64,000 nucleotides of DNA from an uncultured Alphaproteobacteria bacterium. GTDB taxonomy: Bacteria > Pseudomonadota > Alphaproteobacteria > Rs-D84. The position numbers and the translations under genes were made by a program. The DNA lies in the NCBI GenBank assembly GCA_944389465.1, contig CALXML010000001.1, positions 79,427 through 143,426 on the forward strand. Direction: 5' to 3'. Below are positions 119 through 45,425 of the stretch, piece after piece (position 1 is the stretch's first letter; each line of letters starts with the position of its first letter). The notes under the pieces are model-generated. The model was given only the letters and a program-made list of their open reading frames with translations. It was not told where the DNA came from and did not search any database.

Positions 119-661
119 ATGAAAAACTTAATCAAAAAAATGTTAACATTGTCATCCATTTTGGGTGTAATAGTATTGTTGTCTGGATGTACAGGATGTG
201 GCCAGAAAAAAATGAAACCACAACCGCAACCGGCGACGCAATCAACAGAAACTGTTGTATTTTATCAAACTTATGAAGAAGCAGATGTAAGTCATGTTCA
301 TGCAAAAATGTATACCCACAGCAGCCGTGGTGGCGAATCCAGAATGGGGTATATCAAATTCTTTGAAACAGATGCTGGATTGAAAATGGAAGTGGATTTG
401 AAAGATTTGCGTCCGGGCAAGGTTTATACGATTCGTATCCACCAGTGCGGCAGCTGCAATAACGACAGTATGTGCTGTGACAAAACGCCAATGTCTGTGA
501 ATTTACCAACATTAAGTGTACAGACAGCGGGCCGACTGAAAGAATCTTTCATTATTCGTGGTTTGACTGCGGAACAATTGAATAATGCCAAGATTTATTT
601 GGAACGTGATGGCGGGTATAAAGCCGCGTGGGGAACGTTGGAAAAAGGTATGATGTTATAA
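119..661 (+). CDS. Lipoprotein with a Cu/Zn superoxide dismutase (SodC)-like core that lacks the usual copper-binding histidines
   Basis: Signal peptide with lipobox LSGC. The central segment YTIRIHQCGSCNND aligns with the SodC motif HGFHIHQNGSC, but only one His remains. AAGGAG RBS 7 nt upstream of the ATG. Terminator follows. Confidence 0.55.
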   Translation: MKNLIKKMLTLSSILGVIVLLSGCTGCGQKKMKPQPQPATQSTETVVFYQTYEEADVSHVHAKMYTHSSRGGESRMGYIKFFETDAGLKMEVDLKDLRPGKVYTIRIHQCGSCNNDSMCCDKTPMSVNLPTLSVQTAGRLKESFIIRGLTAEQLNNAKIYLERDGGYKAAWGTLEKGMML

Positions 662-691
662 GTTGTCCGGTGTATGAATGTGTGTTTATAA

Positions 692-719
692 CCCCGAATA
701 ATTTTCGGGGTTATTTTTG
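692..719 (+). terminator. Intrinsic terminator after the SodC-like gene
   Basis: Hairpin ccccgaa/ttcgggg followed by a T-run (ttattttt). Confidence 0.7.
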
Positions 720-768
720 TTGTTATAATTTCTTTAAGATTTTTTTCTTATGTGCTATAATTCCATGT

Positions 769-2330
769 ATGGAGATGAGATGGGCTTTTCTTTTGAACAC
801 AATCGCATCTGTTGCCGTTACTTTTAATGCCGTGGCACAGGACTTTGATTATGTCACCAATGGCAATATTGGCAGTGAATGGAATATAGAAACAAATACC
901 ATTGTTTCGGATACTGTCAGTATTGATGTTGACACTGTTAATATTCTAAATTCTGTAATACTGGTAAATAATGGCACGATAAGTGGGAACTTTAATATAT
1001 GTGATGGGTGCGATGTTTATATACGCAATTCAGGTGATATAGTTGGGGATATTTGCCTGATACAGCGTGGTTGATACATGTTATTACGTCCAGTGATGAT
1101 TTGGTGCCGGTTGGTATAAATGGTAATTATGATGTGCTGTTGTACAATGCAGACAGATTATCGTTGAGTGGAATACAGGGGATTGCCACTGGGGCAAATA
1201 AATTAACAATACGTGATTCCAGTATTTTGATTGATACTGTGGCATCTGATGTGTTAATGCCGTATACGGAATTAAGTGGCAATATAACGTTATATATTGA
1301 TGATTCGTTAAGTTTTTCACACAGTGCGGTGCTGTCTAATATTTATGATGATGGAACGGTCAGAATTAATATTGATAAAAATCCTTTATACAGGGTTTCC
1401 GCGTACATAAGGGATAATTCATTATTTGTTGATGTTGAGCGCGAAACAGATTATGACAAAGTGTTTGACGATGAATTGGGCGACTTTTTGGATACTGTAA
1501 AAGATTCGGATGAACAGGATGATTTATTGCAGGCACTGGAAAAGGCCGACAGTGCATCCGAAGTAAATAAAATTATTTCACAATCTGGACGGCTGCATCC
1601 AATCAGATTAATGGATTCTGTGCGGATGTTTAACAGGTTTGAATTACAAAATAATTTAAATGTACGTGTGTTGGATGGTGTATCATTAAGGCCAACGTTT
1701 ATGTTTTCTGATGGTGTGTATATTGGTGGAATATCTGTTGGTGGGGTGAAAAATATTTCAGATAATTTTAACGTCGGGTTGAATTTGTATACTGCATATG
1801 CAGATTTTGAAAATGATTTTGATAAATATAAATTCGCGCTGTACGGCGGAAATGTGCATGCAGCGTATTTTTATGATTGTCTGATTGCGCGTATTATTGG
1901 TGGGGTTACGTTCGCGTCCTTTGATGATATAATCGTTTTTGATGGAAAAACAAATATATCAAATCCGCATGGTATTACGGCGTATGGAATTGCAGATATA
2001 GGATTTGAATTATATGATAAAAATAATTTTTCAATTGCGCCATTTGTGCGGGCAGGGTTTGATTATGCGTCTGTGTTGAATTTTGACGATTCGGATTTTA
2101 TTTCAGGTATTGGTACGGATATTGTATTTAACAATGTGGGATATGATATTAAATATGATTACGGCCTGCGTTTATTTGCGGATGTAAATGGCGCGGTGGA
2201 TGCACTGATTCAGATGAATATGATTTCTGTGGACGATTATGTGGGCGGCACGTTGGCGGCGGGAATTATTTATGATGAAAATTTTGGCGTTGGATGCAAA
2301 TTTGAATTGGGTGTCAGCATCAATTTTTAA
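769..2330 (+). pseudogene. Autotransporter-like outer membrane protein gene, interrupted by a frameshift at a G4 tract (1045-1048). Either phase-variable or a pseudogene.
   Basis: ORF 628..1074 (frame 1) carries the signal peptide MEMRWAFLLNTIASVAVTFNAVAQ from ATG 769. ORF 1053..2330 (frame 0) continues the passenger domain and ends in a beta-barrel-like C-terminal region with alternating aromatics and a terminal ...ELGVSINF. One extra G in gttggggat joins the two frames (..DIVGGYLPDTAW..). Confidence 0.5.
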
Positions 2331-17035: not shown

Positions 17036-18913
17036 TTGTTTGTGTCGTCTGCATTTGCGGCCGGATATTCGTGCCCTGCATATAAAAAATATACATCTTG
17101 TAATGCCGGATATTATTTGAATGGAACAGGGGCGGGAAATTCTTGTTCGTCGTGTACGGGTGTGTCGTTTACCAATTATGGTACTGATACCACAACAGAT
17201 TACAGTGGATGCACCGCCACATCACAAACGGTTAGTGGCAGTATCAGTGGTGGTGGTTCGTATACGCAATACCAAACGCGTACCGGTTCGCGTACAGGTA
17301 CACGCAGTAAAAGCCAGACCTGTTATCGTACTGGTGGGGCGGGTGGAACCAGTGGTTCATCTGCTTGTACAGGTATGGGGAATTGCGGGGCGTGGTCATA
17401 TGGCAGTTGGTCGTATGGGGCGTGCAATTACACTGCGTGGGCAAACAGTGGTGCGCGAAAAATAACCTGTCCGGCGGGAACCTATTGGAATGGTTCTGGG
17501 TGTGCGTCCTGTGGCACGGGGTATTATTGTGCGGGCTTTAACAGCGTTGACGAATCGTCATTATTAAATGGTTATGGGCGTAAATCTTGTACAAATGCGC
17601 CGGCAAACGCCAATTACACCGGCAGTGCAACAACAAATTCATGTGCGTGGTCATGCAAGGCGGGCTATTACGGTTCATCCGTCGCGGGCAGTACATCTTG
17701 TGCGGATTGCGGCAGTGGTAATTATTGTACTGGTGGAACACATCGTGCAACATGTGCGTCAACTGTACTGGCCAGTGCGCCAATCCCCACTAACATTATA
17801 TCTGTGTCCAGTGGCAGTTGGTTGGATTTTAATCATGCAACCAGTACATCTGATTGTGTATGTGAATGGTATTTTAGTGATGATGTCAGAACGCAATATA
17901 TGAATCAACGCTTATGCAGTGAAGGGCCGGGGGGAAATAATTATACGCATTATAATTGGTGCAGAACAGGATATTATGCAACTGAACCACTGAATTTTAA
18001 CAATTGGTATAACAACTGTGCGGCGTGCACGAATGGACCGGCTAATTCCACGTACACCAGTTACAGCACCCCATCACAGATGTATGCAGTGGAAAGTAAT
18101 TGCCCGTGGCAATGTAATGCCGGTTTTTACAAAAATGGTAACAGTTGTGTTGCGTGTCCAAGTGCATATCCGTATTCAGATGCGGGTGCAACATCGGTAA
18201 CCCAGTGTTACAGTGGCACAAAAAAACGTGCATGGAACGGCAGTCAAATACCATGTGCAAAGCCATCGGGGTGTGCCACGGTGCAATGTAATGCATGTTC
18301 AAAATCAACGTGTGATTATGTTGCATATGCAAACAGTGCGGGCACTGGTGATGGCGAGGTTAAATCAGGCTGTACCACTAATAATGCGTCGTGTAATCAA
18401 ACGGTTGCGTCGGTTACTGCGGCGTCCGGATATTATGTTAATGGCGTATCCTGTCCGGCGTGCAGTGGGGTGGGGGACGGTTCGTATACTTTGTCTGAAA
18501 ATGGCAATACCGGTGGCAATGCCCAATGTTACAAGATTTGTTCGCGTGCATGTACGCAACAGGCGTGTCCTGCAAATGCCACGTGTACGCATGGCACAAC
18601 CAGTACGTCGGGGGTTCAATATTATGGGGGCGCATGCAATGCGGCCGCGTCAACATGCACCATGTCTTTTGAATGTAATAATGGGTATAACTTAACGTCT
18701 GGCAATATTTGTGCCCAGTTATGCACCGCCGGTGCAACACATTTGAAAACGGGTACTGGGGTCAGTATACCATTATATTCCGCACCGCAATCGGTGCCCG
18801 CAATAAATGTCGGGTATAATGGCGATGTGTGTTATGGCACATTGGCAACCGGCGCGGCCAGTGGGGCATTTAATGTAAAGTACGGCGGTTCAACATATCA
18901 CGCAGTTCAATAA
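17036..18913 (+). CDS. Large cysteine-rich secreted repeat protein (family member; GYYC/CxxC-rich)
   Basis: 625 aa with more than 60 Cys and recurring CxAGYYxxG/CTGG motifs. The ORF-track start is a TTG. The N-terminal LTLFVSSAFAA would be a short signal-like segment if an upstream CTG start is used. The start is uncertain. Confidence 0.6.
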   Translation: MFVSSAFAAGYSCPAYKKYTSCNAGYYLNGTGAGNSCSSCTGVSFTNYGTDTTTDYSGCTATSQTVSGSISGGGSYTQYQTRTGSRTGTRSKSQTCYRTGGAGGTSGSSACTGMGNCGAWSYGSWSYGACNYTAWANSGARKITCPAGTYWNGSGCASCGTGYYCAGFNSVDESSLLNGYGRKSCTNAPANANYTGSATTNSCAWSCKAGYYGSSVAGSTSCADCGSGNYCTGGTHRATCASTVLASAPIPTNIISVSSGSWLDFNHATSTSDCVCEWYFSDDVRTQYMNQRLCSEGPGGNNYTHYNWCRTGYYATEPLNFNNWYNNCAACTNGPANSTYTSYSTPSQMYAVESNCPWQCNAGFYKNGNSCVACPSAYPYSDAGATSVTQCYSGTKKRAWNGSQIPCAKPSGCATVQCNACSKSTCDYVAYANSAGTGDGEVKSGCTTNNASCNQTVASVTAASGYYVNGVSCPACSGVGDGSYTLSENGNTGGNAQCYKICSRACTQQACPANATCTHGTTSTSGVQYYGGACNAAASTCTMSFECNNGYNLTSGNICAQLCTAGATHLKTGTGVSIPLYSAPQSVPAINVGYNGDVCYGTLATGAASGAFNVKYGGSTYHAVQ

Positions 18914-19223
18914 ATTAAAAAACTTGTTTTTATTATCGTCTTAAAATATACTGATTTATGAATCCAAAGGGATTTGGGTTCGGGACCTGAAAAATCCTGT
19001 ATTTAGGCGATGCGGAAACGTATCGTAATCCGACTGAAAAAAACGTCGGCGCGTGTGTTGCGCCGTGTGTTTATATCACCCGATTTAAAAGGTCGGGGAT
19101 TCGCGATTATACAACAGTGGGAAACCATAAAAGTCGCGGGGTCATTCCTAAATATGATTTTTCAATCCCCGACCGCCAATTCCGTGGCGGTTTTTGTTTA
19201 ACAAAAGCAAAAGGGAATTGAAA

Positions 19224-19774
19224 ATGAAAAATCGTGTGTTTATTTGGGGCGTGGCTTTTGCGTGCGCCTGTGTTGGCAATGTTGTTGGGCGAACATGCAC
19301 CAGTTCTGTAAATATACAATGTCCGGTTACAGCGGGTGCAGCAAGTTGTTGCCGTATGTTGAATGAAACCTGTGCAGAGGCGGGCTGTGGCGGTACATCT
19401 GGTGGGGGGATGTGGAAGATTGCGACCCGTGTCCTGCGGCTGAATTGACATGGACGGTAAATCGCTTGTATGGCTTTCAGTACAGAATTTCTGGGTATAT
19501 GCAGGATGCAATAACATGCCGTTGTACACCACAATATATCACGCAATGCATAGCAGGCCGATACGGATTAAGCGTGATAACCACGAACAATATACCAACG
19601 GCTGATGAGGTGGATTGTAAATTTTGTCCGTCTGCTGGTGGGCGGATAAATCCGGCAACATCTGTGGCGGGGAAAAATAATCTTATAACGTCTTGTTATA
19701 TACCGGCCAATGCAACGGGCAGTGATGATACGGGCACGTTTACGGTCAGTAATGATTGTTATTATACAGAATAA
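19224..19774 (+). pseudogene. Cysteine-rich family member with the conserved CYY tail, interrupted by a frameshift in a G6 tract (19404-19409). Either phase-variable or a pseudogene.
   Basis: ATG 19224 with aaaggg RBS encodes the signal peptide MKNRVFIWGVAFACACVG... and the frame closes at 19448. ORF 19412..19774 in another frame ends ...CYIPANATGSDDTGTFTVSNDCYYTE. Adding one G to ggtgggggga gives a continuous ...SGGGDVEDCDPCP... protein. Confidence 0.55.
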
Positions 19775-41135: not shown

Positions 41136-41735
41136 TTGAAAATGAAAAAAATATTTGTGCCGGCGTTATTGCTGGGGGTGATTGTGCCCAATGCGGTGTA
41201 TGGTGCTGTAAAACCACCAGTTTCAGGTGAAGAAAATGCCTATGTTGGCAAAGAGATGGGGTGGGCCACGTGTCAGTTATGTATGGATAGTGCACTGTCG
41301 TTGCGCGATTGGATATTATCCATGGGCTTTGCGGACGAGTCGTGTTTAGGATTGTCATCTAACCCAGATTACATAGCATACAAAGGCACATTGAGTGAAC
41401 ATGTTACTTATGATGCACAACAATTAGGAATGCCACAAGCAGGCGAGATTGTGAACAGTTATATGGATTCCGTGGCTGCAGAGGTGTGTAATGGCGTTCC
41501 GCCGGCAGGTTCGTGTATGTATTACGGTATGTGTATGTGCGCGGCGAATTATTATCCATATGCTGGTGATGATTGGTACGGTGCGTTAGAGTGTGTGGCG
41601 TGTCCCAGTGGCGGAAAATCCAATGAAAATTCACAGTTTGGTATTACAGATTGCTATATTCCGGCCGGAACAACGGGTTCTGATGAAACAGGAAAATTTA
41701 CGTATTCGTCGGACTGTTATTATACAACGAATTAA
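41136..41735 (+). CDS. Cysteine-rich secreted protein with the conserved CYY tail (family member)
   Basis: Signal peptide MKKIFVPALLLGVIVPNAVYGA. Ends ...DCYIPAGTTGSDETGKFTYSSDCYYTTN. The leader is conserved with that of 19224. Confidence 0.7.
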   Translation: MKMKKIFVPALLLGVIVPNAVYGAVKPPVSGEENAYVGKEMGWATCQLCMDSALSLRDWILSMGFADESCLGLSSNPDYIAYKGTLSEHVTYDAQQLGMPQAGEIVNSYMDSVAAEVCNGVPPAGSCMYYGMCMCAANYYPYAGDDWYGALECVACPSGGKSNENSQFGITDCYIPAGTTGSDETGKFTYSSDCYYTTN

Positions 41736-44072: not shown

Positions 44073-44192
44073 TGCTGAAAATAAACCTTGGTTTGGATTT
44101 GTTGTTTTTATTAATTGACAGTTTGGCGGGAAACGTGCAAAAATTTAATAATAAATATGCCGAATCTAACCCAACATTTATATACGGCGGGG

Positions 44193-45425
44193 ATGAAAAT
44201 GAGAAAGATTTTTCTGTTAATACCGTTATTATTCATATGTACAATTACAACGCATTCATATGCTATTGACCCGACATTATGTAATAGTTATACCACTAAA
44301 GAAGAATGTCCTGCAGGTTGTTTTTACAAAGATGGCAGATGCACTGCATGTGATGTTGGTACATATAGTGACCAAAGCGGGCAAACAGGGTGTAAAAAAT
44401 GTTATCATCCAACCAAGGGCATTTGGGATTGGGCGGACGAATCTGTTGGTCATGAATCAAACGAGTGTCCATGGATTGCAACATGCGCATATAACGAATA
44501 CTGGGATATATCTGGAATTATTGACGGCAGTAATTTTGGTTGTACACAATGTGGCACCAATTATAATTCCAAACTGACAGAAAGTAGTACGTATGAAATA
44601 TCTGGTCAGGGTATAGTGGCTGTTGATGGATTGAAATATTTGCAAGATGCGGTTTGTGATGGAAAAGTGTATAAACTGACATTGGTAAAAAATTTAACTA
44701 ATTTTTTAGAAAAGGATAAATATGCATATGTAAAATATAATGAGGGTTTTTCTGACAGTGAAAATGGTGATTTTCTGTTTGATGGTACTGCACCAAACGT
44801 TACGCCGACGTTTAAGTGGTGGCAGAAATTTGAAGGATATTTTACTGAAAAGTCTGGTGGTTCTATACGATTTAATTCAGATGGTGGAACGGCGCGGACG
44901 CAAACCACACCGACAACATTTACGGGTGATACGACTTTGTACGGTCATTGGGATGAAACGCCTGTGGAATATAAAGTTGAATATTATACTGATTCCAGTA
45001 TGACAACCAAGTTTAGTACAACACAAACCTGTGAAATGGGAATGGAATGTCCTGTCAAAACAGATAAACCGTCGCAATCTGGAAAATTATTTGACCATTG
45101 GGTTTGCGGGGCCGGATGCAGCGGTACTGTTACAGATAATATTCCAGAACCCACAGAAAGTTATTATGACACTGGCCAGCCAATAAAATTATATGCCGCA
45201 TATGCCGATTGTCCAGACGGATATTATTGTTCTGGGGGAAAGCAAAATCCGTGTCCGGCCGGTACAACCAGTGCCGGTGGCGCGTCATCAGACAAGGATT
45301 GTTATATGGTAACAGGAACGAATGGTACGAAATTTTGCGACACCAGTAATGGCAATGAAAAAAGATGCTTTTATTTGCCGTTGGCTACTACATCGGGTGG
45401 AAATATAACTTTTAATCCACAATAA
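44193..45425 (+). CDS. Cysteine-rich secreted protein (family member, variant tail)
   Basis: ATG 44193 after ggcgggg gives the signal peptide MKMRKIFLLIPLLFICTITTHSYA. Cys-rich with CPAGTTSAGGASSDKDCYMVTG... The tail diverges after the CY box. Confidence 0.6.
   Translation: MKMRKIFLLIPLLFICTITTHSYAIDPTLCNSYTTKEECPAGCFYKDGRCTACDVGTYSDQSGQTGCKKCYHPTKGIWDWADESVGHESNECPWIATCAYNEYWDISGIIDGSNFGCTQCGTNYNSKLTESSTYEISGQGIVAVDGLKYLQDAVCDGKVYKLTLVKNLTNFLEKDKYAYVKYNEGFSDSENGDFLFDGTAPNVTPTFKWWQKFEGYFTEKSGGSIRFNSDGGTARTQTTPTTFTGDTTLYGHWDETPVEYKVEYYTDSSMTTKFSTTQTCEMGMECPVKTDKPSQSGKLFDHWVCGAGCSGTVTDNIPEPTESYYDTGQPIKLYAAYADCPDGYYCSGGKQNPCPAGTTSAGGASSDKDCYMVTGTNGTKFCDTSNGNEKRCFYLPLATTSGGNITFNPQ

Follow-up and report, generated by a model that had tools for sequence, protein, structure and literature searches.

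The gene at 769..2330 on the + strand of the 64,000-nucleotide stretch of DNA analysed here (the window) is very probably a recent, lineage-specific null pseudogene of a type Va autotransporter, which arose through deletion of the four bases TATG and belongs to a single clone that occurs in several samples. As the earlier note had described, two ORFs of the window (628..1074 and 1053..2330) lie in different frames on this strand, and the tetranucleotide GGGG occupies 1045-1048, within gttggggat. The upstream frame (frame 1, with its true start at ATG 769) ends at the TGA at 1072-1074. The downstream frame, which is -1 relative to the start, is open from 1038 to 2330, the last TGA in that frame ending at 1037. 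These frames, which confirm that the gene is truly frameshifted, overlap by 34 nt (1038..1071), and a net change of +1 anywhere in this interval fuses both of them. The earlier observation that one added G joins the two ORFs is therefore correct, but it is equally true of any single base inserted between 1038 and 1071. The features of the locus are collected in Table 1.

Table 1. Features of the frameshifted autotransporter locus, in window coordinates
Feature	Position	Strand	Basis or remark
Intrinsic-terminator-like hairpin and T run, at the end of the upstream 180-aa gene (119..661)	688..714	+	11-pair stem with 5 GC pairs; T tail
Promoter-like site: TTAAGA, 16 nt spacer, TG-TATAAT	734..761	+	10/12 matches; consensus match only
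True start codon and predicted signal peptide MEMRWAFLLNTIASVAVTFNAVAQ	769..840	+	Conserved start; model helix at P0001 residues 51-65; presumed cleavage site
N-terminal fragment as encoded in the window	769..1074	+	95 authentic codons, 6 out-of-frame codons (CLIQRG), TGA 1072-1074
G4 tract: GGG Gly codon and first base of GAT	1045..1048	+	Invariant in intact and broken alleles; not the lesion
Deletion junction: TATG (equally ATGT) gone between the two positions	1053..1054	+	DNA and protein comparison
Rest of the beta-strand passenger, -1 frame	1056..1451	+	Strands at P0001 residues 73-273 (model)
Alpha-helical linker	1452..1649	+	P0001 model helices 277-280, 283-295, 300-307, 311-320, 327-342
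C-terminal 12-strand beta-barrel (autotransporter beta-domain), ending ..GVSINF, and stop codon	1677..2330	+	AlphaFold, Foldseek, PF03797 in relatives

The frame break and the neighbouring G tract

A protein search with the one-G-repaired product of the earlier note as the query retrieved P0001, a 99% identical and intact protein that reads ..SGDIVGDIYVPDTAWLIH.. at the site. The DNA encoding it (L001) differs from the window by 19 substitutions and a single gap, which consists of TATG after position 1053, and it has the same G4. Seven intact contigs (L001, L028, L029, L032, L033, L034 and the source of P0001) read GTTGGGGATATTTATGTGCC, and six broken contigs read GTTGGGGATATTTGCC. At the site itself the intact alleles L001, L028, L029, L032, L033 and L034 have GTTGGGGATATTTATGTGCCTGAT, while L013/L030, L014, L015, L016 and L031 have GTTGGGGATATTTGCCTGAT, the same as the window. 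The string GTTGGGGAT is exactly common to every allele read, intact or broken. With respect to the window the intact allele, GATATT[TATG]TGCC, has four extra bases between 1053 and 1054, and its codons GAT ATT TAT GTG CCT GAT (D I Y V P D) become GATATTTGCCTGAT in the window.

The G4 tract is thus uniform in all alleles, and the lesion is not a G missing from it, as the earlier note had supposed, but a loss of four bases at 1053/1054. Compared with the real ..DIVGDIYVPDTAW.., the repaired protein ..DIVGGYLPDTAW.. that followed from that supposition lacks one residue and has three other positions changed. The deletion lies 5 bases 3' of the G4 run, outside any repeat and with 1 nt of flanking microhomology, and TATG is single-copy at the site in the intact alleles. 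Its effect is a change of frame after codon 95 of the 521, within the passenger, where residue 94 is the D of DIYVPD. A G run of at least four occurs in ~10% of random 34-nt stretches of the window, and any homopolymer of at least four in 53%. The G4 in this permissive interval is no more than chance would supply, and carries little weight alone.

These observations bear directly on the proposal of phase variation, in which reversible slipped-strand mispairing at G4 would turn the gene OFF by the loss of one G. It is true that one base added in 1038..1071 restores the frame, and that a second surface-protein gene in the window (19404) has a true one-G loss in a poly-G run. However, G4 is the same in the 7 intact and 6 broken contigs, the real difference is a 4-base non-repeated segment, and with a repair to G5 the protein would lack a residue that every homologue has at the site. 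No simple-sequence repeat was found at the frameshift site, where TATG is single-copy and the neighbouring G run is 4 long, and no variation in tract length was found among strains in 13 contigs from at least 10 samples. Four G are well below the tract lengths that give useful switching rates by homopolymer slippage. With the repeat substrate missing and the tract constant across intact and broken contigs, phase variation at this site appears extremely improbable.

A different way of retaining a single product would be programmed -1 ribosomal frameshifting, or transcriptional slippage, within 1038..1071. The 34-nt overlap of the frames would accommodate such recoding, the shifted ..GYLPD.. happens to resemble the native ..IYVPD.., and zero substitutions have accumulated since the deletion. 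But the segment ATA GTT GGG GAT ATT TGC CTG ATA CAG CGT GGT TGA holds no X XXY YYZ slippery heptamer, none being present in the zero frame within 1038..1071. Every other family member is encoded in one frame, with no evolutionary signature of recoding, and the young age of the allele accounts for the absence of decay. Transcriptional slippage would need longer runs than G4 and T3. Recoding is accordingly judged very improbable, and a plain frame-disrupting deletion of TATG is the reading that we retain below.

Carriers, intact alleles and the age of the deletion

The segment 601-2400 of the window recurs at 100% identity, frameshift included, in L013/L030, L014, L015, L016 and L031. The six broken contigs come from five metagenome assemblies (ONAT22-1 SAMEA6814565, SAMEA6814564, BRZ_KK, BRZ_KG and Logan ERR4096486), the first four of which were reached via the adjacent miaB protein; the contig from ONAT22-1 SAMEA6814565 is 83.5 kb long. 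In those four assemblies gene callers rendered the locus as a fragment of 425 or 419 aa together with one of 148 or 101 aa. The N-terminal fragment of the window, whose 95 authentic codons comprise the signal peptide and 71 passenger residues, matches P0160 exactly, the fragment of 101 aa that was predicted in other assemblies.

An error of assembly or sequencing, with an intact gene in the real genome, might be suspected since the window comes from a metagenome-derived assembly and two surface-protein frameshifts lie within 20 kb of each other in it. Yet the identical deletion is present in five separate assemblies from different samples, which were made by different assemblers judging by the contig names ('NODE_..cov', 'scaffold_'), and a non-repetitive 4-base loss is not an error of the homopolymer type. 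Moreover, intact alleles were recovered from other samples of ONAT22-1, one of the two studies (L028 from SAMEA6814631 and L032 from SAMEA6814514), so the pipeline does not create the deletion. An artefact is therefore scarcely credible, and the systematic homopolymer error that the earlier note had offered as its second reading is contradicted by the recurrence of the same 4-base deletion at 100% identity in five assemblies. Because this non-repetitive loss is reproduced in all five of them, the broken haplotype represents a real deletion. The carrier samples could share a host population, given their prefixes (ONAT22-1 and BRZ, along with the Logan run), in which case the spread of the clone could be local.

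The intact state is the ancestral one. The intact protein, ..GDIYVPDTAW.., aligns to distant orthologues without gaps, and the orthologues P0002 and P0003 (38-40% identity) are gapless through ..DIYVPD.. / ..NFSVPD.. / ..TFYIPN... The converse polarity, with the intact form derived by insertion of TATG, was rejected because the distant orthologues match the intact form without gaps. In all seven species-representative genomes (GTDB) that carry the gene, the frame runs without interruption for 514-539 codons. An exhaustive profile search found 377 family representatives, and of the 150 listed, 148 consist of one polypeptide of 489-568 aa. Neither of the two refuting conditions named in the earlier note applies exactly. 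It had held that a uniform G4 together with split orthologues would point to a fixed pseudogene: the uniform G4 was found, in contigs rather than reads, but the orthologues proved to be intact, as did the majority of strains within the species, so the pseudogene is confined to a lineage and not fixed species-wide.

Within the species, the seven intact alleles whose DNA was read are 98.3-99.9% identical to the window. Among the 15 listed of the 22 members of the 90%-identity cluster there are 11 distinct intact sequences (521 or 568 aa), from at least 22 contigs, and the four broken pieces in the same listing (425, 419, 148 and 101 aa) represent one haplotype. Multiple independent OFF alleles were not found: a single OFF haplotype stands beside ON protein sequences of at least 11 different kinds, which is consistent with one mutation rather than repeated switching. 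The nearest intact allele, L032, differs from the window gene by one substitution (1489 T>G) and TATG. The comparison of the window with L001 (14 synonymous and 3 non-synonymous changes) gives a dN/dS of 0.058. On account of this ratio and the near-identity of L032, strong purifying selection acted on the gene until one clone underwent the deletion very recently.

The 17-19 substitutions that separate the window from L001, L028 and L029 all lie downstream of the deletion, with 0 in the 285 nt upstream of it, where ~3 are expected; L033 and L034 have 3 upstream differences from the window gene. This skew between 769..1053 and 1054..2330 could reflect a recombination boundary or a stronger constraint on the N-terminus, and is too weak to interpret.

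The encoded autotransporter and its genomic neighbourhood

The assignment of 769..2330 to a small (521 aa) classical type Va autotransporter is supported by relatives and by predicted structure, and not by domain matches of the window product itself. The one-G-repaired product had no Pfam or NCBIfam match when scanned, while PF03797 (autotransporter beta-domain) was detected in 25 of 60 family members with a best E-value of 1.8e-8. Against PDB sequences, a profile of 111 sequences gave weak matches to EstA (E = 0.014) and EspP (E = 0.59), which are convincing only together with the fold search. A profile from a 3-sequence alignment was discarded, as its only match was a spurious designed-repeat protein. 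The AlphaFold model based on the 111-sequence alignment has a mean pLDDT of 88.9 and a pTM of 0.75. In this model P0001 has a helix at 51-65, beta strands of the passenger at 73-273, helices at 277-342 and twelve long strands at 352-566, the pLDDT of these barrel strands being mostly >90. All of the top 15 Foldseek matches in the PDB belong to type Va autotransporters, either as beta-domains or at full length, namely EstA, AaaA, Hbp, EspP, BrkA and NalP (E = 1.6e-8 to 1.6e-6; target-normalised TM-score 0.56-0.67 for the beta-domain-only structures). AIDA-I follows at rank 19, and the listed solved structures within the top 19 have E-values of 1.6e-8 to 3e-6.

The predicted barrel has the 12 strands of the type Va class, with PF03797 recognised in relatives though not in the window's own sequence. 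Its terminal F, which the earlier note had pointed out, supplies the C-terminal aromatic residue, the signal for insertion into the outer membrane, and is invariant or nearly so in the 111- and 60-sequence alignments. In type Va autotransporters the pore-spanning helix sits directly before the barrel, and in the model the helix at 327-342 directly precedes barrel strand 1 and may occupy the pore. The segment MEMRWAFLLNTIASVAVTFNAVAQ, which is hydrophobic, contains an A-x-A motif and forms the first helix of the model, is, as judged by its sequence, a putative signal peptide, and export would presumably proceed through the Sec pathway. The architecture proposed in the earlier note, of a signal peptide, a passenger and a barrel ending in F, is in this way upheld by PF03797 in relatives, the model and the fold matches, with the signal peptide as a prediction.

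The start of the gene can be placed at ATG 769, to which the shared beginning of all the orthologues, M-[ED]-x-R-W, corresponds. GTG 628, from which some gene callers derive products of 568 or 148 aa, was considered and rejected as a start because the terminator of the upstream gene lies at 688-714. The promoter-like site likewise falls inside the extension, and the 47 residues upstream of the true Met are disordered in the AlphaFold model (pLDDT <50).

The gene order 180-aa gene, autotransporter, miaB and gatB is complete in five of the seven species-representative genomes; in a sixth, whose contig ends early, the 180-aa gene and part of miaB are present. In the scan of genome contigs the matching species all had identities of <=39%. 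Between species (L006-L012) the autotransporter is 29-40% identical, versus 53-85% for the 180-aa protein, 73-86% for miaB and 85-94% for gatB. The autotransporter therefore looks like a surface protein that diverges fast between species while being constrained within the species, as judged from its low dN/dS.

A lipoprotein-like signal (..LLSGCTGC..) is present in the upstream 180-aa protein, which has no recorded Pfam family. Its gene adjoins that of the autotransporter in every related locus checked with upstream sequence, except L011, and in four of those contigs it is preceded by an OMP_b-brl (PF13505) gene. The three genes may constitute a conserved outer-membrane gene cluster.

The related loci are titled 'uncultured Alphaproteobacteria bacterium', with Candidatus Enterousia sp. 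as the title of the most distant. Candidatus Enterousia has been placed in the order Rs-D84 and is described as gut bacteria with reduced genomes, mostly <1 Mbp (PMC12306168). The autotransporter family seems to be limited to relatives of Rs-D84 / Candidatus Enterousia among the gut Alphaproteobacteria, in which it holds the same gene neighbourhood. These proteins constitute a previously unrecognised family of compact autotransporters of ~520 aa, with 377 clusters at 50% identity, that lie mostly below Pfam thresholds.

Consequences of the deletion, the second lesion and known systems

In the history that we propose, TATG was lost between 1053 and 1054 on a haplotype that still exists intact, probably through an ordinary error of replication or repair. 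Translation from ATG 769 now gives a 101-residue peptide in which the signal peptide and the 71 passenger residues are followed by 6 junk residues but by no barrel. The other 425 codons specify what is left of the passenger together with the linker and the barrel, but no signal peptide, and their product, even if translated, would find the outer membrane out of reach. By the topology rules of type Va autotransporters, the sole basis of this step, neither piece should be displayed on the surface, because the N-terminal one has no barrel and the C-terminal one no signal peptide. The allele would therefore be null. The clone that carries it occurs in several samples.

The second lesion of the window lies in a gene for a small Cys-rich secreted protein (ATG 19225; window 19194..19774), which is frameshifted at 19404-19409. 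There the window and L018 (scaffold_207, the same scaffold as L013) read GGTGGGGGGAT, with G6. The intact 183-aa relatives L021 and L023 have GGTGGGGGGGAT, with G7, and other intact relatives have the GGT/GGG-interrupted versions GGTGGTGGTGAT, GGTGGTGGGGAT and GGTGGGGGTGAT. From this comparison the lesion at 19404 is a true loss of one G, in a poly-G run that consists of glycine codons. The earlier note had treated it and the autotransporter lesion as of one type, and had taken the two hits as support for each other. As the former is a change from G7 to G6 and the latter a 4-base deletion outside repeats, the lesions differ in type and the argument from mutual support fails for the 1045 site. 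Slippage or phase variation is a reasonable question at 19404, but not at 1045.

The products of 19225..19774 and 41136..41735 are both small Cys-rich proteins with signal peptides, and they have a near-identical C-terminal motif, CYIPA(N/G)(A/T)TGSD(D/E)TG(T/K)F(T)..S(N/S)DCYYT; by this likeness they look like members of a paralogous secreted or surface family. The larger Cys-rich ORFs 17036..18913 (625 aa) and 44115..45425 (436 aa) may be related to this pair. No Pfam family is on record for the products of these Cys-rich regions. The 625-aa ORF is rich in Cys, Gly and Thr and corresponds to one 623-aa gene in L019; in the public gene calls for L018, L020, L021 and L022 its counterpart appears as many short ORFs, which may reflect either real frameshifts in those strains or the effect of the unusual composition on gene callers.

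The co-occurrence of the two lesions raises the question of adaptive loss, in which the lineage would have been selected to shed surface antigens or phage receptors, the lesions at 1053/1054 and 19404 being beneficial and aiding the spread of the clone. Two predicted surface or secreted proteins are indeed inactivated on the same contig (L013/L018, scaffold_207), the broken clone is found in several samples, and the marked divergence of the autotransporter between species relative to its neighbours (53-94% identical) is as expected under outside pressure. Nevertheless, two events are too few to separate selection from drift, purifying selection within the species is strong, and the gene is intact in most strains; we accordingly regard adaptive loss as unlikely. 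The specific scenario in which one clone lost both the autotransporter, by the 4-base deletion, and the Cys-rich 183-aa protein of 19225..19774, by the change from G7 to G6, and yet spread across several hosts through adaptive shedding appears quite improbable. If true, an uncultured symbiont with a reduced genome would be shedding surface antigens or phage receptors adaptively, and the divergence of the autotransporter would mark it as a target.

Under the reading that we prefer, a recent null allele created by deletion of TATG, 769..2330 should be labelled as one frameshifted type Va autotransporter pseudogene with its lesion at 1053/1054, and neither as two hypothetical proteins nor as a phase-variable locus. 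More generally, a short homopolymer beside a frame break is no evidence that the break lies there: in the present case, comparison with an almost identical intact allele shifted the lesion by 5-8 bases and showed it to be of another type.

The intact gene is predicted to have the same layout as the solved classical autotransporters EstA (3KVN), AaaA (9OQA), Hbp (3AEH), EspP (2QOM), BrkA (3QQ2), NalP (1UYN) and AIDA-I (4MEE), with a signal peptide, a beta-strand passenger, a helical linker and a C-terminal barrel of 12 strands that ends in an aromatic residue. Unlike these, the window protein has only 521 aa, ~200 of them in the passenger, which makes it much smaller; it is only 8-17% identical to them and falls below Pfam and NCBIfam thresholds in its own sequence, and the window copy is a pseudogene. 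With the phase-variable outer-membrane protein genes of Neisseria, Haemophilus, Campylobacter and Helicobacter it has in common that a surface gene exists in ON and OFF forms among strains. However, in contrast to those homopolymer or tetranucleotide-repeat loci, the lesion in the window is devoid of a simple-sequence repeat and the G4 is constant. A further parallel is provided by the strain-specific surface-protein pseudogenes of host-associated bacteria with reduced genomes, in which, likewise, one small indel nulls a conserved gene under purifying selection. Nothing notable distinguishes the window case from those pseudogenes, and it looks like a sporadic event, since no general accumulation of pseudogenes is reported for the Rs-D84 group (PMC12306168).
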